A program made the translations under genes and the position numbers. The notes under the pieces were generated by a model that worked only from the letters and a program-made list of their open reading frames with translations, was not told the origin of the DNA and did no database searches. From an uncultured Candidatus Saccharibacteria bacterium (GTDB lineage: Bacteria > Patescibacteriota > Minisyncoccia > Phycocordibacterales > PALSA-1337), in contig CAYIYK010000003.1 of the NCBI GenBank assembly GCA_964367745.1, positions 10,248-74,247 on the forward strand: a stretch of 64,000 nt of DNA, written 5' to 3'. Positions 20,056-60,768 of this stretch are shown one piece after another (position 1 is the stretch's first letter; each line of letters begins with the position of its first letter).

Positions 20056-20724
20056 ATGAAAATCCTGATTATTGAAGACGATGTAGATATTTCCAGTTTC
20101 ATAAAGGACAATCTTACAGAGAGTACATATTCAGTTGAAGTCGCAAAGGATGGACCTGATGGATCATTTCTGGCCAGAACAAATTATCACGATGTTATCA
20201 TAATGGATTATTCACTTCCTTCAAAAGACGGAGTTTTGGTTTGTGAAGAGATAAGATCATCAGGTGTTGAAACACCCATAATATTCCTAACCGTACATAC
20301 AGACGTCAAAAAGAAGGTTAAAGCATTAGAAAAAGGTGCGGATGACTATATGACTAAACCTTTCTCTATCGAAGAGTTAAAAGCGAGGATACAAGCTCTA
20401 GTGCGTAGACCTAGGAAAATCGAAAGTCCTGTACTGATAGTTGGAGACCTAGTTTTGGATACACACAAAAGAACAGTTAGAAGAGGTGAAACACCTATTT
20501 ATCTAACTAGAAAGACTTATGATCTATTGGAATATCTTATGAGGAATAAAGGTATAGTGCTTTCAAGGGGATCTATAATGGAATATGTATGGAACTCAGA
20601 TAGTGATCCATTCTCAAATACCATAGAAGCACATATCCTAAACCTCAGAAAGAAAATCAATGTTAGAGGTAAAAAGGATATACTAAAGAATATTCCAGGT
20701 AGAGGTTATATTATGGGGTCCTAA
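20056..20724 (+). CDS. OmpR/PhoB-family response regulator (receiver plus winged helix); no kinase nearby
   Basis: MKILIIEDD, IIMDYSLPSKDG, YMTKPF and a C-terminal wHTH (LTRKTYDLLEYLMRN ... GRGYIM). Confidence 0.9.
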   Translation: MKILIIEDDVDISSFIKDNLTESTYSVEVAKDGPDGSFLARTNYHDVIIMDYSLPSKDGVLVCEEIRSSGVETPIIFLTVHTDVKKKVKALEKGADDYMTKPFSIEELKARIQALVRRPRKIESPVLIVGDLVLDTHKRTVRRGETPIYLTRKTYDLLEYLMRNKGIVLSRGSIMEYVWNSDSDPFSNTIEAHILNLRKKINVRGKKDILKNIPGRGYIMGS

Positions 20725-22957
20725 ACTTACCTTCTTCTATTTGCTTTATAGCCTCATCTACTTGAGACTTTATAAGTGGGAATCTTTCTTTTGCTTTCTT
20801 TAGAAGTTCAATCGCTTGGTATTCTTGTTTACTCAATAGATAAACATAAGCTAGAGATGAATATACTTCTTGATTGTCTTGATCTTTAGCTAATATCTTC
20901 TTATATATTTCAATAGCTTTATCGTACTGTTTTGACAATACATAAGCATTTATAACTCTTGGATCGCTGAATACTTCGAAATCATCTCCAAATAGCTTCT
21001 TCGCTTTTACTTCTTCACCTGCCGTTATAAGAGCTGTAACGTAAGTAGTCTTGGCGATTGGATTGTCTGTTGCTGATTGATACGCTTTGTCTAATATCTC
21101 AACTGCTTCTTTATTTTTACCGATATTTAGATAGTTGACGGCTAGTTCAAATATTATACTTTGCTTGTTTGGAGAAAGTTCATTTGCTTTTTCAAGTAGT
21201 GGTGTAGCTGTATTAAAATCTCTTATAGTATCATAATAACTTCCACCAATAATATATATTCTTGCATCATTCGGAGTTTTCTTTATTTGATTTTCTATTT
21301 CTTTCTTTGCCAAATCGTAGAATGCAGCCTTTTTATCTTGTTGCATTTGTGGATTTTGTATTACATTTGCTGAACAATTTAATAGTTGCTCAACCGACTC
21401 TTGATTTGCAACTGTCTGTCTTAGTTTGAATATTTTTTCAAATGGTACTACTGATACTGTTTGAGGATTTGAACAAGCTATAAGTGCATTTATAAGTCCT
21501 GTATTCGCTTGTATAGCGCGCACATTCACAAAATACATTGAAGTAATGAATAAGATAACAACAACAGGTACATATACATAATCTCTTACTGTTTCAGCAT
21601 CTTCAGATATTGATTTGCTGTAATTTTTAAATATAAATAAATCTTTATTCTTTCTTAATGAATGAACAAAAGCGAGCAATGTAAAGAACATTACATAACT
21701 TGTTTGATTGTCGAATACGAATACATTGTGTATTGCATATCCTACCAATAGACCGATAAGTATAGATTTTTCACCAATAGTTTTTTCACTTTTAATGATA
21801 AAGATTAGAGAGATTAAATATAGAGCTAGATACGCAACTAATCCTAGTATTCCTCCGGCAACAAACCAATCTAGGAAAACACTGTGTGCTCGATCAAACC
21901 ATTGCTCATGTCTCCACATTTCAGGATTGTAATGTGAATTGAATATATAGTTAAAGTTCTCTTGCCCAACTCCGATAATTGCTGTCTTTGGGCTCTCTGT
22001 AATTCCCTTTATAGCCATAGGCCAAATAAATCTTCTTGCTTGAGTCTTTGTATCTGAAATAGATATAGAAGCCAATCTTCCCAATACTTCATTCTTTTGA
22101 ATCCAACTAGCATTTCTATTGAAATAAAATAGTGTACCGATAACAACTACTAGTAGAATAACTGAACCAGAAACTACTCTACTTATATTTGATTGACCAC
22201 TACTCTTTCTACCAAAAATTGTATAAATAGCACATGAAGCAATAATAGCAATCGTCCAACCTATGATAGTTCCTCGAGTTGCTGTTTGAAACATTATAAA
22301 AGAGAAAAATGCTGCGGCAATAGCATATGAATAGAACAAATGCTTCTTTGCAAAATAACTTATAGCCAAATATCCCGCAATAAATGCATTAAATAACATA
22401 TAAACCGCCATGTATGCAGAGTTACCTAGAGATGCATCGACTCTACTTCCTTGATGTGTTTCTGCCCAACCGAAAAACTGTGTTAGACCGTAAAGTGCAG
22501 TTATAAATCCAGAAACAATTACAACATTGAAAAACTTATGCCAACTCTCTTTTGTCTTAAGTACTGAAGATAGAACCATGAAATAACCCCAAAGGTGTAT
22601 TATCATCAACCAACCTTCCATTCTTTCGAAGTTTGACCAAATACTTCTAAGTGGATTTAGACCAGCTAAGTCAGCAATCAGAGCAATAAGAGTAAATATA
22701 CCTATAGAAATAGATATTGCATTGCATCGCGGAAGAACACTTCTATCTGTTCCGACAACACTAGTGCCTCTTTCTCTGAAAACAAGAATCAGCCATAGAG
22801 CAAAGACAATTTCAACAATTATTCTAAAAGCGAATCCTTTACCAGTGATGAATGGAAAGAATAAAGAATTAACGACGTAAGTTGGGATAAATGGGATTAC
22901 TGCTAAACCGATAATAATTGCGTATTTGATTAAAGTATTTATTGTTGCATTGTTCAT
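20711..22957 (-). CDS. O-antigen-ligase-like (Wzy_C) polytopic membrane protein with a C-terminal TPR domain
   Basis: 748 aa. About 12 TM helices include the Wzy_C-like block MFQTATRGTIIGW. The C-terminal ~270 aa carry TPR-like repeats (AFYDLAKK, ANELSPNK, AYQSATDN, IEIYKKILAKDQDN). Confidence 0.8.
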   Translation of the reverse strand: MNNATINTLIKYAIIIGLAVIPFIPTYVVNSLFFPFITGKGFAFRIIVEIVFALWLILVFRERGTSVVGTDRSVLPRCNAISISIGIFTLIALIADLAGLNPLRSIWSNFERMEGWLMIIHLWGYFMVLSSVLKTKESWHKFFNVVIVSGFITALYGLTQFFGWAETHQGSRVDASLGNSAYMAVYMLFNAFIAGYLAISYFAKKHLFYSYAIAAAFFSFIMFQTATRGTIIGWTIAIIASCAIYTIFGRKSSGQSNISRVVSGSVILLVVVIGTLFYFNRNASWIQKNEVLGRLASISISDTKTQARRFIWPMAIKGITESPKTAIIGVGQENFNYIFNSHYNPEMWRHEQWFDRAHSVFLDWFVAGGILGLVAYLALYLISLIFIIKSEKTIGEKSILIGLLVGYAIHNVFVFDNQTSYVMFFTLLAFVHSLRKNKDLFIFKNYSKSISEDAETVRDYVYVPVVVILFITSMYFVNVRAIQANTGLINALIACSNPQTVSVVPFEKIFKLRQTVANQESVEQLLNCSANVIQNPQMQQDKKAAFYDLAKKEIENQIKKTPNDARIYIIGGSYYDTIRDFNTATPLLEKANELSPNKQSIIFELAVNYLNIGKNKEAVEILDKAYQSATDNPIAKTTYVTALITAGEEVKAKKLFGDDFEVFSDPRVINAYVLSKQYDKAIEIYKKILAKDQDNQEVYSSLAYVYLLSKQEYQAIELLKKAKERFPLIKSQVDEAIKQIEEGKFRTP

Positions 22958-24431: not shown

Positions 24432-26312
24432 TTAAAATTTAAATCCTTTTTTCTTTAATTCTTTTAACATGTACTCTGTGATAATCCAATCAAGTGGATA
24501 GTCTATATCTATAGATCTCTCTTTTGGTACTATATACCCTGCAATCTTATCTCCATATAACCTCTCTTCTTTCATAATCAAATCTCTTCTCATACAATAT
24601 ATTGCTGCACTTCTCTTGTATGCTACAGGTAGATCTTGTCTTCTTGTACCTTCTACTTCAGGAACAGAATATGCACTGATGAAGTCACCTTCTAATTTTT
24701 TAATCTTAATTGGATTTACATTACTTGGTACTTCAACTATTGATACTGCACTATCTGCTTTTGTATCTATAAGTTTTTGAATTGTTCCATCGATATCGTC
24801 TATAGTTCTAAAAGGTGAAGTTGGCTGAAGAATAACTACATAGTCGATAGTGATATTATTTTTCTTTTCATAAAAATCTATTGCATGTTGCATTACAGGA
24901 AGATGTGGAGTTGAATCTAGAGCCAATTCTTTTGGTCTCATAAAAGGTACATCTGCACCATACTTCTTACACACATCGGCAATCTCTTTGTCATCTGTTG
25001 AAACGATAAGATGATTTATCAATTTACTTTTCTTTGCAGCATCGATTGTATATGCAATAAGAGGTTTATTGCCAAGTTTCTTTATATTCTTACCCGGAAT
25101 ACCTTTTGACCCTCCGCGAGCTGTAATAACGCCAAGGACGTTTGGAGTTCTGTATTCCCTATCTACATGTTCTTCTGTAAGCGGTTCAAATTTCTTTATA
25201 TCTTTTATTATTTTTTTATCCAAAATATCATGGAAAAGATTCGAGAAAATTCCATTTAGATGAAGTCTTGGTCTCATAGCGTAAACCATATCACTCGTGA
25301 TTATTGTTCCAGCTTTAATATCTCTTGAAGCAACGAGTGTTTTGTTGAAATAAGGTCTAAACTTATTTTGTGCACCTTCCAATTCTTTTTCCTTTTGACC
25401 GTAGAAAATATTTGTATCTATTTTCTTATATTCATTTTTCTTAATACCAGAGACCAATTGTTTCATTTCTTCTGGAGTTACTGAAGCTTTATGGTCTGAA
25501 CCCCAAAGGCCTCGGTCTAGAGAAAAGTGTTTCTCTATAACCTGCGCACCCATTTTTACTGCAGCTAAAGGAATAGTATTATCTCCAACTGAATGATCAG
25601 AAAAACCGATGATCGCTTGAGGGTATTTTTCTCTAAAATATTCTATAGTAGAAAGGTTAAAAGCTTCTGGAGGACATGGATATTCACTAACGCAATATAG
25701 AATAATAATTGGTGACCCACGCTTTGTTATATAGTCAACAACGTCATCCAACTCTTTGTGACTAACCATTCCTGTTGAAATGATTATTGGTTTTTGTGTC
25801 TTTGTAATAAAGTCCAAAAGAACATGATCCTGAACATCACCAGAACCTACTTTCCAGAAAGGTACATCTAGATTCTCAAGCTTAACCGCTGCCATTCTAG
25901 ACATCGGAGTTGAGAAGAATATAATTCCCTTTTTTTCTGAATATCTTTTTATCTCTTTGAAGAATTCTATAGGTGCTTCTTCAGTATTTCTTTTAACCCA
26001 AGAATATCTATCACTGCCTTTGAAGTGCGGAGAAACTACATTTATATTTGCTTGTTCATCTTCAACTTCATGAGTTTGAAATTTCACAGCATGTGCACCA
26101 GCTTTTACTGCTTCGTCGATAAGCTTTTTTGCATTTTTAATATAGACTTTTAGAGGTTGAGACTCTTGTGTTTGTATAAAATTCTTACCGATTTCAGCAA
26201 TAACAAAAACTTTATCTTTTGATATGATCTTAGAGATAGCGTGAGGTTTCACTATTTTTGAATTTTTGTTCTTACTGGCTTTAGAAGATTTAACAGACTT
26301 TTTTGTTTTCAT
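24432..26312 (-). CDS. Fused NeuB-like nonulosonic (sialic) acid synthase plus NeuA-like CMP-acid cytidylyltransferase
   Basis: NeuB blocks: VIAEIGKNF, AVKFQTH, PIIISTGM, VSEYPCPPEAFNL, GFSDHS and VIEKHFSLDR. A SAF-like segment (RDIKAGTIITSDMV) follows. From about aa 393 the sequence VLGVITARGGSKGIPGKNIKKLGNKPLIAYTI is typical of acylneuraminate cytidylyltransferases. Confidence 0.85.
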   Translation of the reverse strand: MKTKKSVKSSKASKNKNSKIVKPHAISKIISKDKVFVIAEIGKNFIQTQESQPLKVYIKNAKKLIDEAVKAGAHAVKFQTHEVEDEQANINVVSPHFKGSDRYSWVKRNTEEAPIEFFKEIKRYSEKKGIIFFSTPMSRMAAVKLENLDVPFWKVGSGDVQDHVLLDFITKTQKPIIISTGMVSHKELDDVVDYITKRGSPIIILYCVSEYPCPPEAFNLSTIEYFREKYPQAIIGFSDHSVGDNTIPLAAVKMGAQVIEKHFSLDRGLWGSDHKASVTPEEMKQLVSGIKKNEYKKIDTNIFYGQKEKELEGAQNKFRPYFNKTLVASRDIKAGTIITSDMVYAMRPRLHLNGIFSNLFHDILDKKIIKDIKKFEPLTEEHVDREYRTPNVLGVITARGGSKGIPGKNIKKLGNKPLIAYTIDAAKKSKLINHLIVSTDDKEIADVCKKYGADVPFMRPKELALDSTPHLPVMQHAIDFYEKKNNITIDYVVILQPTSPFRTIDDIDGTIQKLIDTKADSAVSIVEVPSNVNPIKIKKLEGDFISAYSVPEVEGTRRQDLPVAYKRSAAIYCMRRDLIMKEERLYGDKIAGYIVPKERSIDIDYPLDWIITEYMLKELKKKGFKF

Positions 26313-28507: not shown

Positions 28508-28537
28508 CCCTCACGTAAAAAGCGTGGGGGTCTTTTT
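28508..28537 (+). terminator. Intrinsic terminator after the island transporter
   Basis: An 8-bp stem CCCTCACG (28508..28515) / CGTGGGGG (28523..28530) with one G-U pair is followed by TCTTTTT. It overlaps the neuC stop codon. Confidence 0.65.
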
Positions 28538-29693
28538 ATTCAACAAAAGTCTTTTGAGTATAAAGAGGTACAGTAGCTATAACCTCTGCAATCTTTTTAC
28601 TTGTACCTTCTGCAAAATATAGACTTGATGATTCGTATCTGCCTTTTTTAACTTGTTTCTCTATTGCTTTCTTTATAGCTTTAATATCATGGTCTACAGT
28701 TACTACATTTTCTGCACTCAATCTTTTGAATTGTCTATTACCAATATTCACCACAGGCAAACCCATAAAAGAAGATTCCTTTATTCCAGCTGATGAATTC
28801 CCTATCAAACATAGACTGTTATTCAATAGCCAAATAAAATCCTTTGGACCCATATATCGCATGAAGCGTATTTTATGTCCTTTAACTTCATCTTTAAAAA
28901 TTCGAAGCTCATGTGATATATCTTCTGCACCGGCATCAGCATTTGGCCAAAACCAAAGTGTTGGAATCTTTAGACTATGTACAGCATCAAGGATTTTCTT
29001 TGTATTTTCATGTACATGCTTCACATCCATAATATCAGGATGATACATAACTATTAGATATCCTTTCTTTAGATCAAAAAGGGCCCCACTTCCTGTTTTC
29101 TTTATATCGAATTTATGTTTATTTTTTGCTAATTTTTGTACAACTTCTATTTCTGGACTACCAAAATTGAAAACGTGAGATTCTCTTTCTCCAAGTCTCA
29201 ATACTCTTTTTCTTGCTGGTTCATTTGTTGTAAAGTGAATATGAGAAAGTTTTGTGATAGCGTGTCTTACACTTTCATCTATTGATCCAGATACATCACC
29301 ACCTTCTATGTGTGCGATAGGTATAGATAAATATGCAGCTGCAATTGTAGCTGATAGAACTTCAAATCTATCACCTCTTACCACAACGACATCAGGTTTA
29401 ATCTGATTAAAAAGTGTAGTGAATTCTATTATTCCTAGTCCTGTTGTTTTTGCTTTTACGATTGTATCATTCCCTTCTAGATTGAAATGTAGTTCGTATA
29501 GCTTGTTATATCCGTCTTCCGTCAAAAGTTTTCTTATATCAGCAAGTTTTGAAGTATAACGAGACAATAAAGCTGTACCTCCAACTATTATATGTAGGTC
29601 AATATCCTTTCTTTTCTTTAGTTCTTCTAGAATAAGAAAGTTACGACTATAGTGTATGAAACTTGTAATAACAAAGCAGACTTTTCTCTTCAT
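28536..29693 (-). CDS. neuC: Hydrolysing UDP-N-acetylglucosamine 2-epimerase (NeuC-type)
   Basis: 385 aa. PDVVVVRGDRFE and IAHIEGGDVSGSIDESVRHAITKLSHIHF match the NeuC / hydrolysing-epimerase pattern. Confidence 0.8.
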   Translation of the reverse strand: MKRKVCFVITSFIHYSRNFLILEELKKRKDIDLHIIVGGTALLSRYTSKLADIRKLLTEDGYNKLYELHFNLEGNDTIVKAKTTGLGIIEFTTLFNQIKPDVVVVRGDRFEVLSATIAAAYLSIPIAHIEGGDVSGSIDESVRHAITKLSHIHFTTNEPARKRVLRLGERESHVFNFGSPEIEVVQKLAKNKHKFDIKKTGSGALFDLKKGYLIVMYHPDIMDVKHVHENTKKILDAVHSLKIPTLWFWPNADAGAEDISHELRIFKDEVKGHKIRFMRYMGPKDFIWLLNNSLCLIGNSSAGIKESSFMGLPVVNIGNRQFKRLSAENVVTVDHDIKAIKKAIEKQVKKGRYESSSLYFAEGTSKKIAEVIATVPLYTQKTFVE

Positions 29694-49676: not shown

Positions 49677-50687
49677 CTATTTTATTATCTTAAAAAGCTT
49701 GTCTGACAAAATAGACAATGAATGCTTGTTTGAAAAATCACTTAGTCTAGACAAAATATCCAATCGCTCTTTTTCAGAATAATTCATAACTCTCTCAATT
49801 TTATTTTTTAATTCATCTGTATCCCCTTGTTTAAAAATCAAATCATCACTTATTTCTCCTCTCAAATTATCATTTGAAGCAATAACAATACAACCACAAG
49901 CCATAGCCTCAAATATTGTCTTATCATACATTCCACTTGAAGATAGATTTATAAAAATTTCGTATTTAGAATATAGATCTATAGTTTCAATATTTGGAAC
50001 TCCTTTATGAAATTCTATTAATCCAGAAGATTTATTTTTTAATTCTTCATAATAAATTTTATCTTTTTCGATTGGATCACCGTAGACTGCAACTTTGATA
50101 CTTGGATCATTTATTTTATTTATTACATCTACTAAAACATGAATATTTTTTGAAGGTGATATTCTACCTATAGACAATATAGATTTTCCTAATCTAGTTA
50201 TATTTTTATTCGGTTTAAAGTTTTCTAAATCTACACCTACTGGCATTATTTCAGTCTTTCTGTATTTTGCTGTATATGAAAACTTAGATGTGCAAAACAC
50301 CTTTTTACAGAACATTGAAGCTATATCAGTAAGCATTGAACCTGAATGATGATTCCTCCACATGTATATATTCTTATTCATGATCTTCCACATAACTCCA
50401 GCGAGTAAGATATACTCTTGGTTCATATGAACAAAAACACTGTTGTATTCATTTCTCAATCGCCAAATATATTTATAAAAATTTAAAATATATTTTATCT
50501 TTGATTCCCCTTTTTCTTTACCCAAAGAAAATACTCTAACATTTTTAGGTAAATCGTATTCGCCTTTATAAAGACATATTACATTTACACTTTCATAGTT
50601 TTCTGAGAAAACTCTTACCCAATTATGAAAAAAGCCTAGTACAGGATCATTTTTATCAATCTTTTGAGTTATGATTAATAATTTCAT
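49677..50687 (-). CDS. GT4 (GT-B) glycosyltransferase
   Basis: The C-terminal block is YDKTIFEAMACGCIVIASN (the E..EAMA.G.PVI type). Confidence 0.75.
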   Translation of the reverse strand: MKLLIITQKIDKNDPVLGFFHNWVRVFSENYESVNVICLYKGEYDLPKNVRVFSLGKEKGESKIKYILNFYKYIWRLRNEYNSVFVHMNQEYILLAGVMWKIMNKNIYMWRNHHSGSMLTDIASMFCKKVFCTSKFSYTAKYRKTEIMPVGVDLENFKPNKNITRLGKSILSIGRISPSKNIHVLVDVINKINDPSIKVAVYGDPIEKDKIYYEELKNKSSGLIEFHKGVPNIETIDLYSKYEIFINLSSSGMYDKTIFEAMACGCIVIASNDNLRGEISDDLIFKQGDTDELKNKIERVMNYSEKERLDILSRLSDFSNKHSLSILSDKLFKIIK

Positions 50688-51775
50688 TTAATTTTATCTA
50701 TAATCTTTGAAGCTATATCTTCGCTTGTCCAATCGACAATACTTGCTCCTACATCCTTTGCGATACCTACGTCAGTTGAGATTATTTTGCAATTATTCGC
50801 TTCAGCTTCTTTGAATGTAAGACCGTAACCTTCATACCATGAACAAACTAGAAATACATCGCAACCTTTATAGTATGAGGTGAGATCAGTCTGCCACCCT
50901 TCAAATACAATATTTGATGAAATCTTCAGAATTTCAGATTTTCTTTTAAGATAATCCTGCATTGTTCCAGAACCGACAATCACGAGTCCTGTATCTGGTT
51001 TTTTAGCCAGAACAATCTTCATCGCATCTATAGCCATTGAGAAATTCTTTTCAGCTTCTATTCTTGAAACCATAAGAATGATATTTTTAAATTGAGGGAA
51101 TTTTTCTTTTAAAATAAAAGATGTTTTATCATTCTTTATATAATCAATATTTATATCTATAGGTTTTACTATTATATCTTCTGGATTAAATCCCCTTTTA
51201 GCTAGTGAATCTGCAATTTTATTTGATACTACTCTTATGATATTTGCATGATTTAAAGTAAAACGAGATATAAAAAGTCTTATTCTATTTAAAATAGAAT
51301 TCAAAATACCGATTCTTGCATCGACGAAATACGGACTATGCAGATCGGTATGTATTTGTATCAACAATTCAGAATTCTTTCTTTTACTATTTAGACATTT
51401 CCCCACCAAAGCGGTTTCAAAAGGATCTTGGCAAGTTATAAGTATTGGTATTTCTGAGTTTATTTCATTAATAATTTTTACACCGATCTTTCTCGCATCG
51501 CTTACATAGTTCCATCTTACAAATGATTTCGTAGAATAGATTTTGCAGTTTTTTGCTATTTCTTCATCATTAACTTTTGAATCTGAAAAGACAATAATAT
51601 GTAATTCTTTATATTGCTTTGAATATTCAAGCATTCTTCTTCTAACAGCACTTTTCTCTACAAGTATTTGTCTATCAGTTGAAATCATTATCACAGAATG
51701 ATTGGAATAATCTTTATATGTTGTTTTATAAACATTATTTGATTCTTTCATAAATCGAAATGATTTCATTCCCAA
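50684..51775 (-). CDS. GT4 (GT-B) glycosyltransferase; start uncertain
   Basis: SWYEGYGLTFKEAEANNCKIISTDVG is present. The track start overlaps the upstream gene by 41 nt, and internal Met codons (M9, M30) are alternatives. Confidence 0.7.
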   Translation of the reverse strand: MGMKSFRFMKESNNVYKTTYKDYSNHSVIMISTDRQILVEKSAVRRRMLEYSKQYKELHIIVFSDSKVNDEEIAKNCKIYSTKSFVRWNYVSDARKIGVKIINEINSEIPILITCQDPFETALVGKCLNSKRKNSELLIQIHTDLHSPYFVDARIGILNSILNRIRLFISRFTLNHANIIRVVSNKIADSLAKRGFNPEDIIVKPIDINIDYIKNDKTSFILKEKFPQFKNIILMVSRIEAEKNFSMAIDAMKIVLAKKPDTGLVIVGSGTMQDYLKRKSEILKISSNIVFEGWQTDLTSYYKGCDVFLVCSWYEGYGLTFKEAEANNCKIISTDVGIAKDVGASIVDWTSEDIASKIIDKIK

Positions 51776-52757
51776 TATTCTCCCAACTATGAACCCAATT
51801 AAACTTCTTTACCTTATCTGCTTGTATTTTTCTATTCTTAGGGTCAGATATCCAGACAATCTTTTCGACTATATCATTTTTATTCATTGGATCTATAAAA
51901 ATCGCGCAATCTTTTACTCTATCTGATATACCATTCTCTTTTGTAAGAATAAAAGGAGTACCAACTCTTATGGCGTCAAAAATCATATTTGGACTTATAT
52001 CGCCAATCGAATTTAAAATCACCGCATAAGATCGTCTCATTCTCTCTTGGAAATTATCATAGACTGCTTTTGTAGTATCGAATTCTATATCTTCAAAACC
52101 TTTTTCTTTGACTTTATCCTGAGCAATTTTAAATGAACTCTTTAACAATTCTAGATTCTTCCACTTCAATTCTCTTGTACCAGCAACAAAAACTCTATTC
52201 TCTGGCTCTATTTGTTCATCTCTTTCTCCACAGAAATTCTCAACGATCATATTCTTTTCTGAATCAAGTTTATATACTTTTTCAAAAATATCTCTTTGCC
52301 ATTTTGTACTAAATATTATTGCTGAAGCATTCCTCATAGAATCACCTCCAACTTTAAATATTACTTTTTCTTTTTTAGATAGCTTATTAAGTGATGTATT
52401 ATAGAAATTTTTAAATAAAACCAAGTCTCCTGTTCTTTCAACATAATTTTCCCATAAGAAATCTCCTCCAGTTCTTATGATGTATTTTTTCCTCATAAGC
52501 TTGCAGGCATACATAGTAGGTACTGCTGCACTCCATGTATCAAGTACGAGTATCAAATCCGCATTCCATCCTTTTCTAAAAATCTTTAGAAAAAATAAAA
52601 AGTGTCTGAGGAATTTTGGGAATGCTCTCTCCCAACGATATGCAGCAACTTTTACATCATGACCCTGCTTTTTCCAGGTTTCATAAAGATTTCTAGCATA
52701 TTGAGCTGGACCACCAATATCTGGTGGATATATTCCTGATGAGATTAGAATTTTCAT
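51735..52757 (-). CDS. GT4-like (GT-B) glycosyltransferase
   Basis: MKILISSGIYPPDIGGPAQYARNL at the N-terminus and FDAIRVGTPFILTKENG in the C-terminal domain. Confidence 0.7.
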   Translation of the reverse strand: MKILISSGIYPPDIGGPAQYARNLYETWKKQGHDVKVAAYRWERAFPKFLRHFLFFLKIFRKGWNADLILVLDTWSAAVPTMYACKLMRKKYIIRTGGDFLWENYVERTGDLVLFKNFYNTSLNKLSKKEKVIFKVGGDSMRNASAIIFSTKWQRDIFEKVYKLDSEKNMIVENFCGERDEQIEPENRVFVAGTRELKWKNLELLKSSFKIAQDKVKEKGFEDIEFDTTKAVYDNFQERMRRSYAVILNSIGDISPNMIFDAIRVGTPFILTKENGISDRVKDCAIFIDPMNKNDIVEKIVWISDPKNRKIQADKVKKFNWVHSWENIGNEIISIYERIK

Positions 52758-53944
52758 ATTACCTTTAAGAATACCTTATTCTTCATATCACTTGCAATGA
52801 GGTTCCATTGATACTTTCTTTCTACCATATCCAAAGCATTTTTGACTATTTTCTCTTTTAAACTCTTATCATTTAAAAGCATTTCAACTTTCCAAGCTAT
52901 GCTCTTTGGATTTTTTACTTCACACAAAAGGCCTGTTTCTCCATCTTTAAGAAAATCTACTATTCCTCCAACCGGTGTTGCTATAACAGGAATTCCAGCA
53001 GCCATCGCTTCTATATATGAATTACCAAAACCTTCAGACAAAGATGGTCTTATGAAAATATCTGATACATGGAGATATTTTGGCATATCTACATGTTTAA
53101 CAAAACCTAAGAAGATCACTCTGTTATCGAGATTTAATCTCTTAGTTCTTTGCTTTAGCATTTCTTCTTCATGACCTGTACCCAAGACAAGGAATTTAAC
53201 ATTTTCTGGTAGATATGTTAGAGAATCAATGATATCTATAGTTGCATTTTTCTCAACCAATCTACTTGTAGTTACAATAAAAATATCTTTATCTTTTTTA
53301 TTCAGACTCTTTTTTAAATCATTAAATTCATTTTCATTTTTTCTATTTGAAAATAGAGAAAAATTCACGCCATTTGGTACAACAACAATCGGTGAACTTG
53401 CTCCCATATTTTTTGACCAGGTTGATAGGAAATTTGATATTACTTGAACAATATCCGCCTTTCTAAAAATCCTCATGAAAGATGATTTGAATATTCCTTG
53501 GCGAATCTTGAAGTTATCACCTTCTTGTATTGAAAGTACAAATGGAATATTTGGATTGAATATTTTAAATAAATAACCAGCAAAACCAGCATAACTTGCC
53601 ATCATTGACCATACTAAATCGTATTTATTTTTTCTATTTAGTTGTAGTGCCTTTATAAAAGCAAAAACTGGAAAAGTTAGTTTTGATAATGGGAATATCT
53701 TTGAACTTTTTGTATTACTACCAAACCAAGGCATACCAGCTCTATATACATTTATATTCCCTATTCTTTCAAATTTAGGAGCCTGTTTTCTTAAGGTTAT
53801 CATATCGAATTCCATATCAGACGGAAGGATACGATCAGTAATTTCTTTAATCGCTATTTCTGCCCCACCTATGAATCTTGGATAGTAAACTAGCGAAAAA
53901 ATGAGTATTTTCTTACTTTTTTGTTCATTTTTTACTTGTTCCAT
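52754..53944 (-). CDS. GT4 (GT-B) glycosyltransferase
   Basis: YYPRFIGGAEIAIKE and PSLSEGFGNSYIEAMAAGIPVIATPVGG. Confidence 0.85.
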   Translation of the reverse strand: MEQVKNEQKSKKILIFSLVYYPRFIGGAEIAIKEITDRILPSDMEFDMITLRKQAPKFERIGNINVYRAGMPWFGSNTKSSKIFPLSKLTFPVFAFIKALQLNRKNKYDLVWSMMASYAGFAGYLFKIFNPNIPFVLSIQEGDNFKIRQGIFKSSFMRIFRKADIVQVISNFLSTWSKNMGASSPIVVVPNGVNFSLFSNRKNENEFNDLKKSLNKKDKDIFIVTTSRLVEKNATIDIIDSLTYLPENVKFLVLGTGHEEEMLKQRTKRLNLDNRVIFLGFVKHVDMPKYLHVSDIFIRPSLSEGFGNSYIEAMAAGIPVIATPVGGIVDFLKDGETGLLCEVKNPKSIAWKVEMLLNDKSLKEKIVKNALDMVERKYQWNLIASDMKNKVFLKVI

Positions 53945-53948
53945 TTTA

Positions 53949-55823
53949 TTACTTTACCTTAAGTACATCACGAAGTACATCTTCAGGAACCTCTCTTTTT
54001 GTGTCACTTTTTTCGTGATGATTAGCATGACTTTTATGTATTTCATTTGGTTTATGGTCACTTGAAGTATTTTGATGATTCGAATGATTTGAACCATCTG
54101 AATCTTTTTTTACATGCTCGTCCTTATGTGCCAAAACTGATGCCAAAGCACTCTTTAATTCATTTATTCTTTGTGGATGTGCATCTTTATGATGATTATG
54201 AGCCTTAGGTGTATTTGTTAGAGAATTCAGAGATACAGACTTTAACTTAGGAAGATTTGGTTGGGGTTTTGGATAATTTGATTGTTGCACATGATTTTGG
54301 ACACTTGGCTGTACAGGTGCTTGGACTGATTGTTGAGGTGGTTGCTGAATAGGCTGTTCTGCGACAATTGGCTTTGGTGGAGGTGGAGGTATATGTGCAG
54401 GTGCAGGTGTGGGTGCAACTGTAGCTACTGGTTTGGGCGGTTGTGTATTTGTTGCAGGAGTACTAGAACCATTCTGAGTAGAATTCGAAGCGGTAGATGC
54501 ACCGGGCGTAGGATTCTTTGGAGTTACAACAGGCTTTATTGGTGCAAGCCATTCTTCGATTTTCTTTTCTACTTCTGGTCTCTTACTAGCAAACTGTCTT
54601 CTTGATTCTTCAATCACAGCAAGAGCATTGGACTTCTCTGGTAAAGGAATGGGTGGCAATGTTGTAGCAGAAAATGGTGATGAACTTATACCATCAATCA
54701 TCAGTTTCAAATATATTTGAAATATTCCGAGATTAACAATATCTTCAGCGGTGAACTGTGGTGCGAATTCTTTTTCCAAAACTTCTGCATCATAAGCGCC
54801 AACACGGAACACGATCATTGTTCCAACGTTTCCAAAAACCGCAGCTCTAACCTCTTCTTCCATTTGCTCTATATACTGGTGAGCCATAGTAAGATTCAGT
54901 TTATATTTTCGAGCTTCAGAGAGAATATCTGCAAAAGATTCATTTGCAAATGATTGGAATTCGTCTACGAATAGATAGAAGTTTGGAAGTTTTTTTATAA
55001 CATTATCTGACACATCAGCACGAGAAAGTGCAGCGAGATATATCTTGGTTATTATCATTCCACCCAAAAGATTTGCATTCGATTCTCCGATTCTTCCTTT
55101 TGATAAGTTAACTATAAATATCTTACTCTTATCCATCATTTCACGGAGATTGAAAGATGATTTTGGTTGACCGATCATATTTCGTATCAGAGCATTCGCA
55201 GTGAACTGACCGATTTTATTTTGTATTGCAGGAACAGCTTCGGCAGCCATTCTTTCTGTATAGTTTGCAAATTCTTGTACCCAGAATGATTTTACTGATG
55301 GATCAGTAACACAGGCCACTACTTGCTTCCTGAATTCTTTATCAGAAAGCATTCTATTTACCCCAAGCAGGGTTGCGTCAGGATATTCAAGTAAAGCCAA
55401 AAGAGTATTTGTAAGAATATACTCCATTCTCGCTGACCAAGCATCTTGCCAGATCTTTTTGAATGTACTCATAAGACCAGATACAACTAGATGTCTTTTG
55501 TCATGATCAACGTTTTCAAGTACGTTGAATGATATAGGATAGTCCATATCAAAAGGTGCAAAATACACAACGTCTTGTCTTCTATTCTCAGGAATATATT
55601 CTAGTAGCAATTCCGCTGTCTTACCGTGAGGGTCGAGGAAGGCCATACCTTCCCCATTTTTTATATCTTGCACAGCCATGTTTTCAAGTAGAGTAGATTT
55701 ACCCATACCTGTCTTACCGATCACATAAACGTGCTTTGTTCTATCTTTGGCTTTAATACCAAAACTTACCTTTTTATTTCTGGCATCAGTTTGACCAAAA
55801 TATGTAATCTTTTCTTCATTCAT
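53949..55823 (-). CDS. VirD4/TraD-like (type IV coupling-protein-type) P-loop ATPase with no TM anchor and a Pro/Gln/His-rich tail
   Basis: Walker A is VIGKTGMGKSTLL and Walker B is NFYLFVDEFQSF. LTMAHQYIEQM is also present. The N-terminus is soluble. The last ~200 aa are low complexity (PPPPPKP, QQPPQQ, HNHHKDAH, HKSHANHHEK). Confidence 0.7.
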   Translation of the reverse strand: MNEEKITYFGQTDARNKKVSFGIKAKDRTKHVYVIGKTGMGKSTLLENMAVQDIKNGEGMAFLDPHGKTAELLLEYIPENRRQDVVYFAPFDMDYPISFNVLENVDHDKRHLVVSGLMSTFKKIWQDAWSARMEYILTNTLLALLEYPDATLLGVNRMLSDKEFRKQVVACVTDPSVKSFWVQEFANYTERMAAEAVPAIQNKIGQFTANALIRNMIGQPKSSFNLREMMDKSKIFIVNLSKGRIGESNANLLGGMIITKIYLAALSRADVSDNVIKKLPNFYLFVDEFQSFANESFADILSEARKYKLNLTMAHQYIEQMEEEVRAAVFGNVGTMIVFRVGAYDAEVLEKEFAPQFTAEDIVNLGIFQIYLKLMIDGISSSPFSATTLPPIPLPEKSNALAVIEESRRQFASKRPEVEKKIEEWLAPIKPVVTPKNPTPGASTASNSTQNGSSTPATNTQPPKPVATVAPTPAPAHIPPPPPKPIVAEQPIQQPPQQSVQAPVQPSVQNHVQQSNYPKPQPNLPKLKSVSLNSLTNTPKAHNHHKDAHPQRINELKSALASVLAHKDEHVKKDSDGSNHSNHQNTSSDHKPNEIHKSHANHHEKSDTKREVPEDVLRDVLKVK

Positions 55824-55875: not shown

Positions 55876-57441
55876 TTAATTATGACTGTATATTGTATAT
55901 AAATTATCACTATATACCCTCTTCAAATTTGAGTATTTTAATAAATCATTTCTATTATCCTGTATTACATATTGAATATCGTATTTTTCTAGATTTTTTA
56001 ATATCCTTTCTTGTGTGTTTGAACTCATAACATCATGAATTCTCTCTGGCTTTGATATCCACTGCCCCGCATATAATGTCCAAAAAACATAATTTCTTGA
56101 ATAAAGCGGTATATATTGTGAAAGAGATTCCGGTGCCATAAATATTGAATCTTTAGAATTCGACTTTATCCAATTAAGTATGGGGACATATCTTTGAACA
56201 TAAATAGTATAATCTAAAGAGTTTTTATATGAATTAATTTGAATCAAAATAGAATTAAAAATACAAAGAATAGACAGCAGGTATATTATTGCAATACAAA
56301 TTTTTGATTTTATATTGTCAGACAGAAATTCCTTTATAAAATAGACTATTGAGATAACCAAGACTGGACTGAATACATACATTTCGAAATGACCATATTG
56401 CATTATAAGTCCAGTTATAACATGTTCATTTCTAGTTAGAAAACAAGCAGATATTAGGCCTGAAATAAATATAAATTCATCATTAATAATTTTATTCTTC
56501 TTATAAACCAAAAAGAGCAGCGTAGAACAGACTATAAAAATTGATATTCCAAACAAACTAACATCAGGAATATGACTCATTCTTAAATATTCATGTGGGA
56601 TGGTTAAATAGTACTCATGAGACATTAGATTCACAATCTGATAAAAGACTGGAATAGCCAATATTATACCTACTGATAAACTGACAACAAGACCCTTAAG
56701 TCTGTCAAATTCTTTTCTAAAAAAATAAATCCCAATAAAAACTAGATTTAACACAGTTAAATATGCATATGTAAAGAAATAAACATAGAATGACAAACCA
56801 AAGAAAATACCGAGGATGATATACCACAGTCTAGTATTCTTTTTAATTGCTAAATACAAAATATTTAAATATAAGAAAAAATACAAAGAACTGAATTGAG
56901 GATTAACAGGTCTAGAGAATATAAGGAATTGATCCTCATCAGTTACAAACCTAAACAGATTCAATAAATCATGAATATTTAACAGATCAACGAAATTCAA
57001 GAGATTATACCCAAGCACAATAAACAGTGACCCGAGTATAGATATGTGAATATTCCTAGTAATTCTATCGAGCAGCAAAAAAGACAGAAGGAAGATAATG
57101 ATCGGCAACACAAGTTCGTACAAAATCTTTAAATCCAGCGTATCTATACTTAATATGATACCTGGCAGTGCCAATATCATAGACGAAATAGATGAATCAA
57201 AGTGTGGGAAATTATAGCCATACTCTTTTATAAAAGGATTACAATTAAACGTACAACCCATGTATGCTCCTTGAATTTTATTCAGATATAGTGACTCTGC
57301 ATCGGTATTCATTATTGGTATACCACTAAAGTTAGTACTGTGAATAAATAAAATATTTGGCAATACATAAATAACACCGCAAACTAGAGAGATGATAAGG
57401 ATCGATAGAAATTTCTTAGAAAACATAAATAAATTATACAT
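55876..57441 (-). CDS. Polytopic membrane protein of unknown function immediately downstream of pilA (possibly GT-C-like)
   Basis: The track start is TTG 57444; ATG 57441 is more likely. About 11-12 TM helices are followed by a ~110-aa soluble C-terminus. The acidic motif NTDAESLYL follows the first TM, as in GT-C enzymes. Confidence 0.6.
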   Translation of the reverse strand: MYNLFMFSKKFLSILIISLVCGVIYVLPNILFIHSTNFSGIPIMNTDAESLYLNKIQGAYMGCTFNCNPFIKEYGYNFPHFDSSISSMILALPGIILSIDTLDLKILYELVLPIIIFLLSFLLLDRITRNIHISILGSLFIVLGYNLLNFVDLLNIHDLLNLFRFVTDEDQFLIFSRPVNPQFSSLYFFLYLNILYLAIKKNTRLWYIILGIFFGLSFYVYFFTYAYLTVLNLVFIGIYFFRKEFDRLKGLVVSLSVGIILAIPVFYQIVNLMSHEYYLTIPHEYLRMSHIPDVSLFGISIFIVCSTLLFLVYKKNKIINDEFIFISGLISACFLTRNEHVITGLIMQYGHFEMYVFSPVLVISIVYFIKEFLSDNIKSKICIAIIYLLSILCIFNSILIQINSYKNSLDYTIYVQRYVPILNWIKSNSKDSIFMAPESLSQYIPLYSRNYVFWTLYAGQWISKPERIHDVMSSNTQERILKNLEKYDIQYVIQDNRNDLLKYSNLKRVYSDNLYTIYSHN

Positions 57442-57442
57442 C

Positions 57443-57467
57443 AAAAAACACCCTATGGGTGTTTTTT
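57443..57467 (-). terminator. Intrinsic terminator directly after pilA
   Basis: AAAAAACACCC-tat-GGGTGTTTTTT is a perfect hairpin with a U-tract on the minus strand. It ends 1 nt before the downstream ATG. Confidence 0.7.
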
Positions 57468-57495
57468 GATGTAACCGTATTGTTACCAGATTGTA

Positions 57496-57975
57496 TTAAG
57501 ACGCAGGGCAAGCTGTAGCATTTATTGCAAGAACAGTTGTAACTTGTCTTGAAGCGCCTGTATTATCTACACACCATCCAACTGGTGTACCACTCACTGA
57601 AGCCTTCAGCGGAGCCCAGATAACCCATGTTGCTGATGCATCGTGACATTGTGCAGTGTTCCAAGTTGAAGCAGTTCCATCAGCAAATACCGCAGCTGTT
57701 CCTCCGAAAGCGGCTTGAGCAGCCATTACACTGTCTCCAATAACATTAGCACCTGTTAACGCACATACGGCATCATAAACATTAGTTCCATTATCATAGA
57801 ACAATTCTGCCTCAGCTCTAGCACCTGCTAGGTTTGACTTTATAGCTGTATCAGCTCCCTTTGAACGTGCTGTGTTTAGTGAAGCCAAAACAACTGATGA
57901 CAATATACCGATAATAGCGATAACTACAAGCAACTCAATCAATGTAAAACCTTTTTGCAAATATGATTTCTTCAT
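57496..57975 (-). CDS. pilA: Type IV major pilin
   Basis: The prepilin leader and N-methylation motif read MKKSYLQKG/FTLIELLVVIAIIGIL. Four Cys are present (two potential disulfides). The C-terminus is ...INATACPAS. Confidence 0.9.
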   Translation of the reverse strand: MKKSYLQKGFTLIELLVVIAIIGILSSVVLASLNTARSKGADTAIKSNLAGARAEAELFYDNGTNVYDAVCALTGANVIGDSVMAAQAAFGGTAAVFADGTASTWNTAQCHDASATWVIWAPLKASVSGTPVGWCVDNTGASRQVTTVLAINATACPAS

Positions 57976-60381: not shown

Positions 60382-60768
60382 CTATTTTTTAATATTTGAA
60401 CAAATCTTCTCAACTTCAGACATAACTTCAGAAGGAATTGTGGTTGCTTTTATTATATAACCATCAACATTCAAAGCTTTTGCTCTAGCAATATCATCAG
60501 GAAGACCTTGATTTGTTAGCATGATTATAACTGATTTCTTTACCAAACCTTCTTTTCTTAGATTTGAAAGTAATTCGATACCATCCATTCCTGGCATAAC
60601 AATATCTAAAAGTAGAATATCAGGTTCCAATCCATCTCTTATTAACTTCAACGCTTCTTCTGTATCTGCTGATGTGTGGACGATAAAATCATTCTTTGAA
60701 AACTTCAGAGAATACATATCGAGTAGAAACTTGTCATCATCTACAAAAAGTATTGAGCGTTGTTTCAT
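60382..60768 (-). CDS. Stand-alone CheY-like receiver protein embedded in the pilus operon
   Basis: ILFVDDD, ILLLDIVMPGMDG, IIMLTNQ and GYIIKA. All canonical receiver positions are present and there is no output domain. Confidence 0.9.
   Translation of the reverse strand: MKQRSILFVDDDKFLLDMYSLKFSKNDFIVHTSADTEEALKLIRDGLEPDILLLDIVMPGMDGIELLSNLRKEGLVKKSVIIMLTNQGLPDDIARAKALNVDGYIIKATTIPSEVMSEVEKICSNIKK

Follow-up and report, generated by a model that had tools for sequence, protein, structure and literature searches.

The question raised by this locus is what a protein built like a type IV coupling protein (T4CP) does when it has neither a membrane anchor nor a secretion system beside it. The gene lies in a stretch of 64,000 nucleotides (hereafter the window) of contig CAYIYK010000003.1 (assembly GCA_964367745.1) from an uncultured Candidatus Saccharibacteria bacterium, between a pilus operon and a run of glycosyltransferase genes, and encodes an ATPase of 624 residues. 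The protein combines the fold and the motifs of a T4CP with a missing anchor and conserved peptides in its tail; it behaves like a core gene product, and its gene is linked to GT4-type glycosyltransferase genes and not to the pilus operon. With little more than even confidence we read it as the short form within a clade of VirD4/TrwB-like ATPases that is chromosomal, passed on vertically and spread across the Patescibacteria, and as a hexameric motor recruited by its tail. The coordinates of all features are collected in Table 1.

The translation confirmed the 624-residue open reading frame (ORF) and the Walker motifs GKTGMGKST and YLFVDEFQSF that an earlier note on this DNA had listed together with a T4CP/TraD-like family call. 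This call held up as well. All four Pfam models named there score above their gathering cut-offs: TrwB_AAD_bind (PF10412; 36.0 versus 20.5 bits), T4SS-DNA_transf (PF02534; 35.8 versus 20.1 bits), DUF87 (27.7 versus 23.2 bits) and TraG-D_C (PF12696; 26.0 versus 22 bits). The T4SS-DNA_transf match, taken as a proxy for the VirD4-type T4CP profile of CONJScan, spans profile positions 37–347 of 468 (66%); PMC12102498 requires an independent E-value below 0.001 and more than 50% profile coverage for the CONJScan profile. TrwB was the sole chain in the PDB to pass the E = 0.01 level, with E = 1.3e-3 for the single sequence and E = 1.3e-5 for a profile. An exact-sequence look-up of the protein found no record.

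A first AlphaFold model of the full-length protein, calculated with 40 close homologues, was poor (predicted local distance difference test, pLDDT, 59). The model of the core (residues 1–430), based on 134 more diverse sequences, reached a pLDDT of 92.5 and a predicted TM-score of 0.90 and superposes on TrwB. Foldseek aligned it end to end with TrwB-deltaN70 over approximately 418 columns at a TM-score of 0.65–0.67. This alignment includes the inserted all-alpha domain, which is among the most conserved stretches of the ATPase. Further matches were Cag-beta (0.65), DotL (0.59), the C-domain of DptH (0.55/0.63) and HerA (about 0.5), and the C-terminal domain of VirB4 was also among the best. 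All of these best matches are translocase-type ATPases; a best match to some non-translocase family, which the earlier note had named as evidence to look for against its reading, was not found among them.

In the alignment of 134 sequences, Gly36, Gly39, Gly41 and Lys42 of Walker A are invariant, and Asp287, Glu288 and Phe289 of Walker B are at least 90% conserved. The same level holds for Arg305, Lys306 and Gln316 of the motif following Walker B, which we take, from what is known of TrwB, to be a putative arginine finger and sensor. Since the Pfam, PDB-sequence and Foldseek matches agree, the ATPase is a member of the VirB4/VirD4 branch of the HerA-FtsK ATPases with the nucleotide-binding and all-alpha domain architecture of coupling proteins. 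It thus shares with T4CPs the P-loop domain, the Pfam scores, the all-alpha insertion and the cytoplasmic fold of TrwB. It has no N-terminal transmembrane domain, no type IV secretion system (T4SS) or relaxase neighbourhood among the scanned ORFs of the window or in the flanks of 80 relatives, and no score above an NCBIfam equivalog or subfamily cut-off. Neither the HerA combination (DUF87/HerA domain, N-terminal HAS barrel and a NurA or defence-effector partner) nor that of FtsK/SpoIIIE (PF01580 motor and gamma winged-helix domain; FtsK_SpoIIIE 12.8 bits versus a cut-off of 24) was found. VirB4, defined by an N-terminal domain plus a C-terminal ATPase (TIGR00929; 23.4 versus a cut-off of 643), is matched only by the fold of its C-terminal ATPase.

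The earlier note had also stated that the N-terminal transmembrane helices are lacking. The maximum Kyte-Doolittle value over 19 residues is 1.34, and no segment reaches 1.6. A common N-terminus of the MNEEKITYF type is present in all 80 genomic relatives, so that the missing anchor is genuine and not the result of a mis-called start. These 80 relatives are the best of 524 found in contigs representing one genome per species, with cores 75–99% identical to that of the window; their neighbourhoods were compared by ORF calling and clustering of the genes on either side.

Relatives with an anchor do exist. These long forms comprise 750–1130 residues at approximately 47–55% identity. Their ATPase part is preceded by a DUF8128 domain (PF26449) of approximately 350 residues, and the N-terminus contains one or two hydrophobic segments. 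The named ones belong to Saccharimonadia, Microgenomatia or Berkelbacteria, and 85 of their loci were analyzed (L081–L085, L091–L170). A literature search for DUF8128 found no paper. A truly split form with a stand-alone DUF8128 anchor gene was considered and rejected: the short DUF8128-only proteins that we inspected come from assemblies in which frameshifts have broken topA and other genes as well, such as the long-read metagenome contigs L081 and L082 with their many frameshift-broken genes (topA, der, T4CP), and they are artefacts. About ten loci contain two long forms in tandem with a gene for approximately 170 residues in between. Many of the 45 long-form tails inspected carry a basic patch of the KKKRTRSRKRK type and a terminal peptide [ED]x[IL]x[LF][RN] (e.g. 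ETILKLR, GEVIKFN).

The tail of the short form consists of the last approximately 195 residues. It is of low complexity, rich in Pro, Gln, Ser, Thr and His, and includes PPPPPKP (residues 479–485), QQPPQQ (residues 493–498) and three His-rich stretches. The description of the last approximately 200 residues as disordered stands for most of this region, with pLDDT values below 50 at residues 441–550 and 567–611 of the full-length model, but it misses three short conserved motifs (residues 524–535, 549–565 and 609–624). The linker in front of them is strongly diverged and contains insertions and deletions even against the nearest relative (L001), whose core is 98.8% identical, and tail lengths in 175 relatives range from 93 to 485 residues. 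Within these 175 tails, the loose pattern [VIP][SP]LxxL of motif A occurs in 111 and the pattern of motif B, modeled as a helix at residues 551–565, in 81. Motif C, with the consensus KE(V/I)PEDVL(R/K)xVLKV(E/D/K) and the amphipathic C-terminal helix EVPEDVLRxVLKV, is the best kept: it is present in 146 of the 175 short forms, including outliers with just 43–44% core identity, and in none of 89 long-form proteins. By analogy with other tails of this build, the three motifs are putative docking peptides on a tether.

The His-rich stretches lie between the motifs. His makes up 7.7% of the tail in the window compared with a family median of 1.3%, which marks the His-richness as specific to this lineage. 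The suggestion that the His-rich tail binds metal ions or nucleic acid was rejected as a family property, because no more than 26 of the 175 tails contain at least 5% His and the composition is not conserved.

Based on the fold and the tail we propose the following mechanism. Like its structural relatives, the ATPase would form a hexameric ring. Driven by ATP, this ring would translocate a polymer or pass it on, and the polymer is most likely DNA. Since the protein has no transmembrane domain, it would be brought to its partner by the tail peptides. It would neither serve a conjugative T4SS as its coupling protein nor pair with the membrane protein encoded next to it.

The distribution of the family is that of a core gene. 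A word-indexed search returned at least 8000 homologues at E ≤ 1e-5, and an exhaustive search of representatives at 50% identity returned 22,268 matches with E ≤ 1e-3, of which 6,001 reach E ≤ 1e-30. For the best 120 homologues, identity over the best local alignment is 64–93%, and those with a name come from Patescibacteria throughout. The best 80 genomic relatives are nearly all labelled as Patescibacteria, too (Taylor-, Pacei-, Parcu-, Zambryski- and Nomurabacteria), apart from a blanket 'Saccharibacteria' label on one series of metagenome-assembled genomes, one Nitrospira label and a few entries named just 'bacterium'. Conservation of the ATPase core is at the level of PilT and PilC and far above that of the neighbouring glycosyltransferases from the same loci.

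Quinonero-Coronel et al. (2025, PMC12102498) counted 5,713 genes for VirD4-type T4CP homologues, spread over 2,918 of the 3,035 genomes of Patescibacteria (96%). Of these genes 148 lie near virB4, and an exaptation of the homologues is named there as a possibility. The gene in the window almost certainly belongs to the same population, and within its phylum it is an ordinary member of an uncharacterised, partly described variant of coupling proteins. The T4SS locus of S. epibionticum has no recognisable coupling and relaxase proteins (Wang et al., PMC10633639). Could it nevertheless be the genuine coupling protein of a T4SS encoded elsewhere in the genome, which has lost its anchor and docks via the tail? 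Sequence and fold are those of a T4CP; moreover, T4CP genes often sit away from virB4, and VirB4 is present in 2,417 of the 3,035 genomes (80%; PMC12102498). On the other hand, the small share of homologues near virB4 and their wider occurrence (96% versus 80%) do not fit such a role, and neither does the finding that S. epibionticum can dispense with its homologue but not with its T4SS (PMC12102498). No T4SS gene was detected among the scanned ORFs of the window (approximately 40, including every ORF of at least 440 residues, scanned against Pfam), which contain neither a relaxase nor a VirB4 domain, as the earlier note had found for conjugation genes; no T4SS cluster was seen in the flanks of the 80 loci. 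Distribution, synteny and essentiality therefore disfavour a service to a remote T4SS, which we regard as doubtful.

Outside the Patescibacteria, stand-alone cores of this clade circulate on mobile elements. Homologues without transmembrane segments and tails (about 380–580 residues) are encoded by 583 plasmids, by jumbo phages of Bacillus and by 12 IMG/VR contigs. The Sulfitobacter plasmid NZ_CP081110.1 (L090), for example, encodes a homologue of 395 residues with 41% identity among recombinases and transposases. These homologues (L090, gp156 of Bacillus phage G, L171–L182) lie in unrelated contexts, and the plasmids are typed as non-mobilizable. A mobile-element remnant or a component of anti-phage defence (DptH-, HerA- or MADS-like) could be read from such relatives, from phrog_5156 (E = 3e-59), from PADLOC mad8 (55 bits) and from weak HerA matches. 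Extreme conservation, fixed chromosomal synteny and near-universal presence speak against both, no nuclease, Sir2, methylase, integrase or relaxase partner occurs among the scanned ORFs of the window, and we give this reading next to no credence. Defence in particular was rejected for the absent partner genes and the core-gene behaviour. No mobile-element genes are among the annotated ORFs of the window, which has a G+C content of approximately 33% and contains no tRNA or Rfam match.

The neighbourhood of the short form is conserved on the glycosyltransferase side. The junction with the first GT4-type gene reads TAA-TAAA-ATG; the 4-nucleotide gap described in the earlier note was confirmed and is kept in relatives, and co-transcription with the GT4 genes is likely from this spacing. 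A GT4 gene occupies position +1 in 45 of the 80 loci and lies within +6 on the same strand in 61; the gap to the first one is at most 24 nucleotides in about 39 loci and most commonly 4 nucleotides. On the other side, a putative glycosyl hydrolase of the DUF4015 family (approximately 393 residues, E = 9e-92) is encoded upstream in 50 of the 80 loci, itself preceded by genes for a small transmembrane protein and an RsmI-like methylase. The most divergent short forms found keep this arrangement (L086 and L087 with 43–44% core identity, L088 with 66%), and in the loci where a pilus operon is placed upstream (L001–L003, L008, L013, L014) the ATPase is still attached to the GT4 genes.

These findings bear directly on the model of the earlier note, in which a split module is made up of the ATPase as its soluble part and of the polytopic protein encoded upstream (counted there as a 12-transmembrane-helix protein) as its anchor, and works with the type IV pilus, e.g. 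in pulling in DNA. The upstream neighbour is indeed polytopic and encoded on the same strand. Of the 80 loci, 10 have a pilin gene among the three genes preceding the ATPase, in 7 cases as its immediate upstream neighbour; genes for PilT, PilB or PilC occur upstream in about 5–7, and pilin-like genes follow about 8 long-form loci. The split-anchor model nevertheless fails, because L001 is the single one of the 80 loci in which the polytopic protein adjoins the ATPase; a 30%-identical copy in L079 is encoded on the opposite strand. The protein has no match in Pfam, NCBIfam, PADLOC, PHROGs or PDB sequences and could be a GT-C-type member of the glycan cluster. A conserved neighbourhood, which had been proposed as a check, was found in the GT4 run and DUF4015, the latter taking the upstream place in most relatives, and not in the membrane protein or pilA. 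As for a motor working with the pilus, the type IV pilus genes of S. epibionticum are essential and its T4CP homologue is not. A terminator-like hairpin separates the pilin gene from the ATPase unit in the window; since it follows the pilin gene, the polytopic gene, the ATPase gene and the GT4 genes look like a transcription unit of their own. The pilus genes upstream of the ATPase are a lineage-specific rearrangement, and taken together we consider a pilus-linked split module very improbable.

The GT4 linkage invites another explanation, namely that the ATPase energises or organises the glycan pathway encoded by these genes or exports its product. The tight junction, the persistence of the link through rearrangements that swapped the upstream genes and in the outlier L087 (43% identity), the DUF4015 gene and the position of the ATPase gene at the border of a glycan island of approximately 33 kb in the window are all in line with this idea. 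However, the long forms have no GT4 link, several short-form loci have other downstream genes, and shared operons are common in compact genomes. We know of no precedent for an ATPase of the T4CP/HerA type in glycan synthesis, and a glycan role appears distinctly unlikely to us.

A link to DNA comes from the long forms. In 67 of their 85 loci a helix-turn-helix (HTH) protein of approximately 350 residues, which matches Sigma70_r4 (48.6 bits) and, in two stretches, HARE-HTH (40.4 bits), is encoded directly upstream on the same strand at a median gap of 54 nucleotides, in some cases with overlap. TopA is encoded upstream in 43 of the 85 loci and DprA within five genes upstream in 13; downstream, besides the pilin-like genes, convergent FtsW/MraY genes occur in 11.

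Several points weigh against a tail-recruited DNA motor of this clade as the answer for the short form. Neither the window nor any of the 80 short-form loci contains a homologue of the HTH partner, and the sole conserved operon partners of the short form are glycosyltransferases and a glycosidase-like protein and no DNA-handling proteins. The NCBIfam models of conjugation proteins stay well under their cut-offs (SXT_TraD 49.2 versus 366, TOL_TraD 43.2 versus 648, CD1115 41.2 versus 250). Hexamer formation, DNA binding and a partner of the tail would all follow from homology, and a gene order shared by small, related genomes may say little about function.

If the polymer is DNA, two processes come into consideration. 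The first is natural transformation: a ring near ComEC and ComFC would pull in single-stranded DNA in a role like that of ComFA, and the polytopic neighbour would not be needed. The conserved com core of the candidate phyla radiation is listed as ComEC, DprA and ComFC, with a ComFA-type motor unmentioned (PMC10633639). S. epibionticum grows without its com genes and likewise without its T4CP homologue, and the family is near-universal in Patescibacteria. Import of DNA by HerA/VirB4-like ATPases has a parallel in the archaeal Ced system, whose CedD and CedB models (NCBIfam) match the ATPase weakly and under the cut-off. DprA lies close to some long forms, as described above, but this proximity may just mirror the widespread linkage of dprA and topA. 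Lamin-tail-domain surface proteins are encoded at +1 in 10 short-form loci; the Lamin-tail domain occurs with ComEC-type hydrolases. No com gene adjoins the short form in any of the 80 loci. Import is a possibility to be taken seriously, although we would not expect it to be the answer.

The second process is cell division. Here the ATPase would be a soluble motor like SftA or FtsK, recruited to the septum by its C-terminal peptide, that clears or resolves chromosomal DNA. SftA of B. subtilis is a relative of FtsK without transmembrane segments. MraY-like genes are present in 24 of the 80 short-form loci and MurC/MurD genes in L086, and the long forms contribute the convergent FtsW/MraY genes and the pairing with a DNA-binding HTH protein beside topA. 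With a globular core followed by a variable linker and a terminal peptide that is conserved, the layout would resemble FtsZ and SSB. Yet the fold is not FtsK-like, the FtsK_SpoIIIE score given above lies under its cut-off, the ATPase has no gamma/KOPS-type domain, and TM7x has an annotated ftsK (PMC10768705). We think a division-associated translocase unlikely.

Both processes can be accommodated in a broader and more speculative version of the tail-recruited motor. The clade would be a chromosomal DNA motor exapted from, and independent of, T4SSs, with an anchored long form that works with the multi-HTH protein beside topA and a soluble short form equipped with docking peptides. The short form would then be either the DNA-import motor of putatively ComFA-less monoderms or an SftA-like motor for clearing chromosomes. 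As a whole, we hold this scenario to be rather unlikely.

Table 1. Features of the ATPase gene and its surroundings in the window.
Feature	Position	Strand	Basis or remark
Whole gene, short form of the T4CP-like ATPase, 624 residues	53949..55823	-	ATG start; stop codon 53949-53951; ORF list and translation
Conserved core, residues 1-430, RecA-type nucleotide-binding domain with inserted all-alpha domain (TrwB/VirD4 architecture)	54534..55823	-	
Walker A / P-loop GKTGMGKST, residues 36-44	55692..55718	-	Sequence; aligns to the TrwB P-loop
All-alpha domain, residues ~107-231, between Walker A and Walker B	55131..55505	-	Helices H107-124 to H226-231 in the confident model
Walker B YLFVDEFQSF, residues 283-292	54948..54977	-	Sequence; aligns to TrwB LWLFIDELASL
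SEARKYKLNLTMAHQY, residues 302-317, conserved Arg/Lys pair and Gln after Walker B as in T4CPs	54873..54920	-	Aligns to TrwB TKGRKAGLRVVAGLQS
Fast-evolving Pro/Gln/Ser/Thr-rich linker, residues 431-523	54255..54533	-	pLDDT <50
Tail motif A LPKLKSVSLNSL, residues 524-535	54219..54254	-	Family consensus KPVSLxSL; kept in homologue tails
Tail motif B HPQRINELKSALASVLA, residues 549-565, predicted amphipathic helix	54129..54179	-	Consensus P(E/Q)RVNELKNALASVLG
Tail motif C, C-terminal peptide KREVPEDVLRDVLKVK, residues 609-624	53952..53999	-	Helix 614-621, pLDDT about 72
His-rich stretches HNHHKDAH, HSNHQ, HKSHANHHEK, between the conserved motifs	54009..54200	-	
First of four tandem GT4-type glycosyltransferase genes	52754..53944	-	Pfam Glycos_transf_1, Glyco_transf_4; 4 nucleotides downstream of the ATPase
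Further tandem GT4-type genes	51735..52757, 50684..51775, 49677..50687		
Polytopic membrane protein, 521/522 residues, upstream neighbour	55876..57444	-	~9-11 hydrophobic segments by crude scale
Terminator-like hairpin, 17-bp stem, then T-run	57437..57473	-	Closes the pilus operon behind the pilin gene (57496..57975)

A number of further observations were made in the surroundings of the ATPase gene. The hairpin overlaps the TTG start called for the ORF of the polytopic protein, so that the ATG at 57441 is its likelier start. A gene for a stand-alone receiver domain (REC; 60382–60768, minus strand) is located between those of PilB and PilT and is kept in related loci with a pilus operon. A conserved small partner gene directly upstream of the ATPase was considered and rejected: the ORFs of 70–110 residues at position -1 are dissimilar, Arg/Ser-rich and probably spurious, and they appear in many loci because a long intergenic region lies there. 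Between DUF4015 and the ATPase (L004–L080) this region has a median length of 379 nucleotides and reaches up to about 800; it contains no Rfam family, and similarity at the DNA level is modest, around -175.

The ATPase unit runs into the surface-glycan island (approximately 20700–53944 of the window), which is situated beside the pilus operon. The island encodes a Wzy_C protein with tetratricopeptide repeats (20711–22957), a fusion of NeuB with a cytidylyltransferase (CMP-synthetase; 24432–26312) and a NeuC-like epimerase (28536–29693), together with two TagF-like enzymes, GT9, GT2 and GT4 enzymes, a Wzx-like flippase, a PMT_2-like protein, GtrA and methyltransferases. This gene content suggests a glycan containing nonulosonic acid, and it possibly serves glycosylation of the pilin. 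In about 10 loci the ATPase is followed by Lamin-tail-domain/PKD surface proteins with a C-terminal transmembrane anchor (at +1 in L041, L046, L047, L050, L054, L059, L060, L062, L070 and L074; also in L087 and L088). Half of these proteins end in a cytoplasmic C-terminal peptide similar to DEYxIIE or DDIEILE.

A large part of bacterial diversity falls to the Patescibacteria, which live in dependence on hosts and are able to take up DNA, and most of their conserved core proteins are without an assigned role. The family described here is routinely annotated as a conjugation protein, though it is almost never found beside a secretion system. The split into anchored and soluble forms, the docking peptides of the soluble form and the DNA-binding partner of the anchored form provide handles for work in genetically tractable Saccharibacteria. 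The same three features caution against reading 'T4SS' or 'conjugation' from automatic annotation. The interest of the gene rests on the ATPase family and not on the locus in the window.

Compared with known systems, the ATPase shares the RecA-type nucleotide-binding domain and the inserted all-alpha domain with TrwB (R388), VirD4, Cag-beta and DotL, and its Walker A, Walker B and following RK...Q motifs align with those of T4CPs. Sequence identity with TrwB is just about 14–17%. Unlike T4CPs, it has no N-terminal transmembrane domain and no T4SS or relaxase neighbourhood, and its gene is chromosomal, near-universal and highly conserved. The VirB4 C-terminal ATPase domain (T. pseudethanolicus, 4ag5) is comparable in fold, but the ATPase has no VirB4 N-terminal domain; with the DptH/DndH C-domain (7es4) it shares the fold, without Dnd/Dpt partner genes. 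Its closest counterparts are the orphan T4CP homologues of PMC12102498, which are T4CP-like, present in 96% of genomes, rarely near virB4 and possibly exapted; in the available passages of that paper, the short and long forms, the tail motifs, the GT4/DUF4015 synteny and the pairing with the HTH protein and topA are not described.

With regard to the tail, the best parallel is TraD of the F plasmid, in which a coupling core is likewise followed by a flexible C-terminal extension ending in a docking peptide (which binds TraM). The motif sequences of the two tails are unrelated, and the Pfam match to TraG-D_C ('TraM recognition site') in the ATPase falls in the nucleotide-binding domain (residues 282–342), not in the tail. 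SftA of B. subtilis and ComFA of Firmicute DNA uptake are functional analogues only: cytoplasmic motors without transmembrane segments, which protein contacts bring to the membrane or septum, where they act on DNA. The C-terminal peptide of FtsZ, which binds FtsA, and the tip of SSB follow the same design principle that we propose for the tail of the ATPase.

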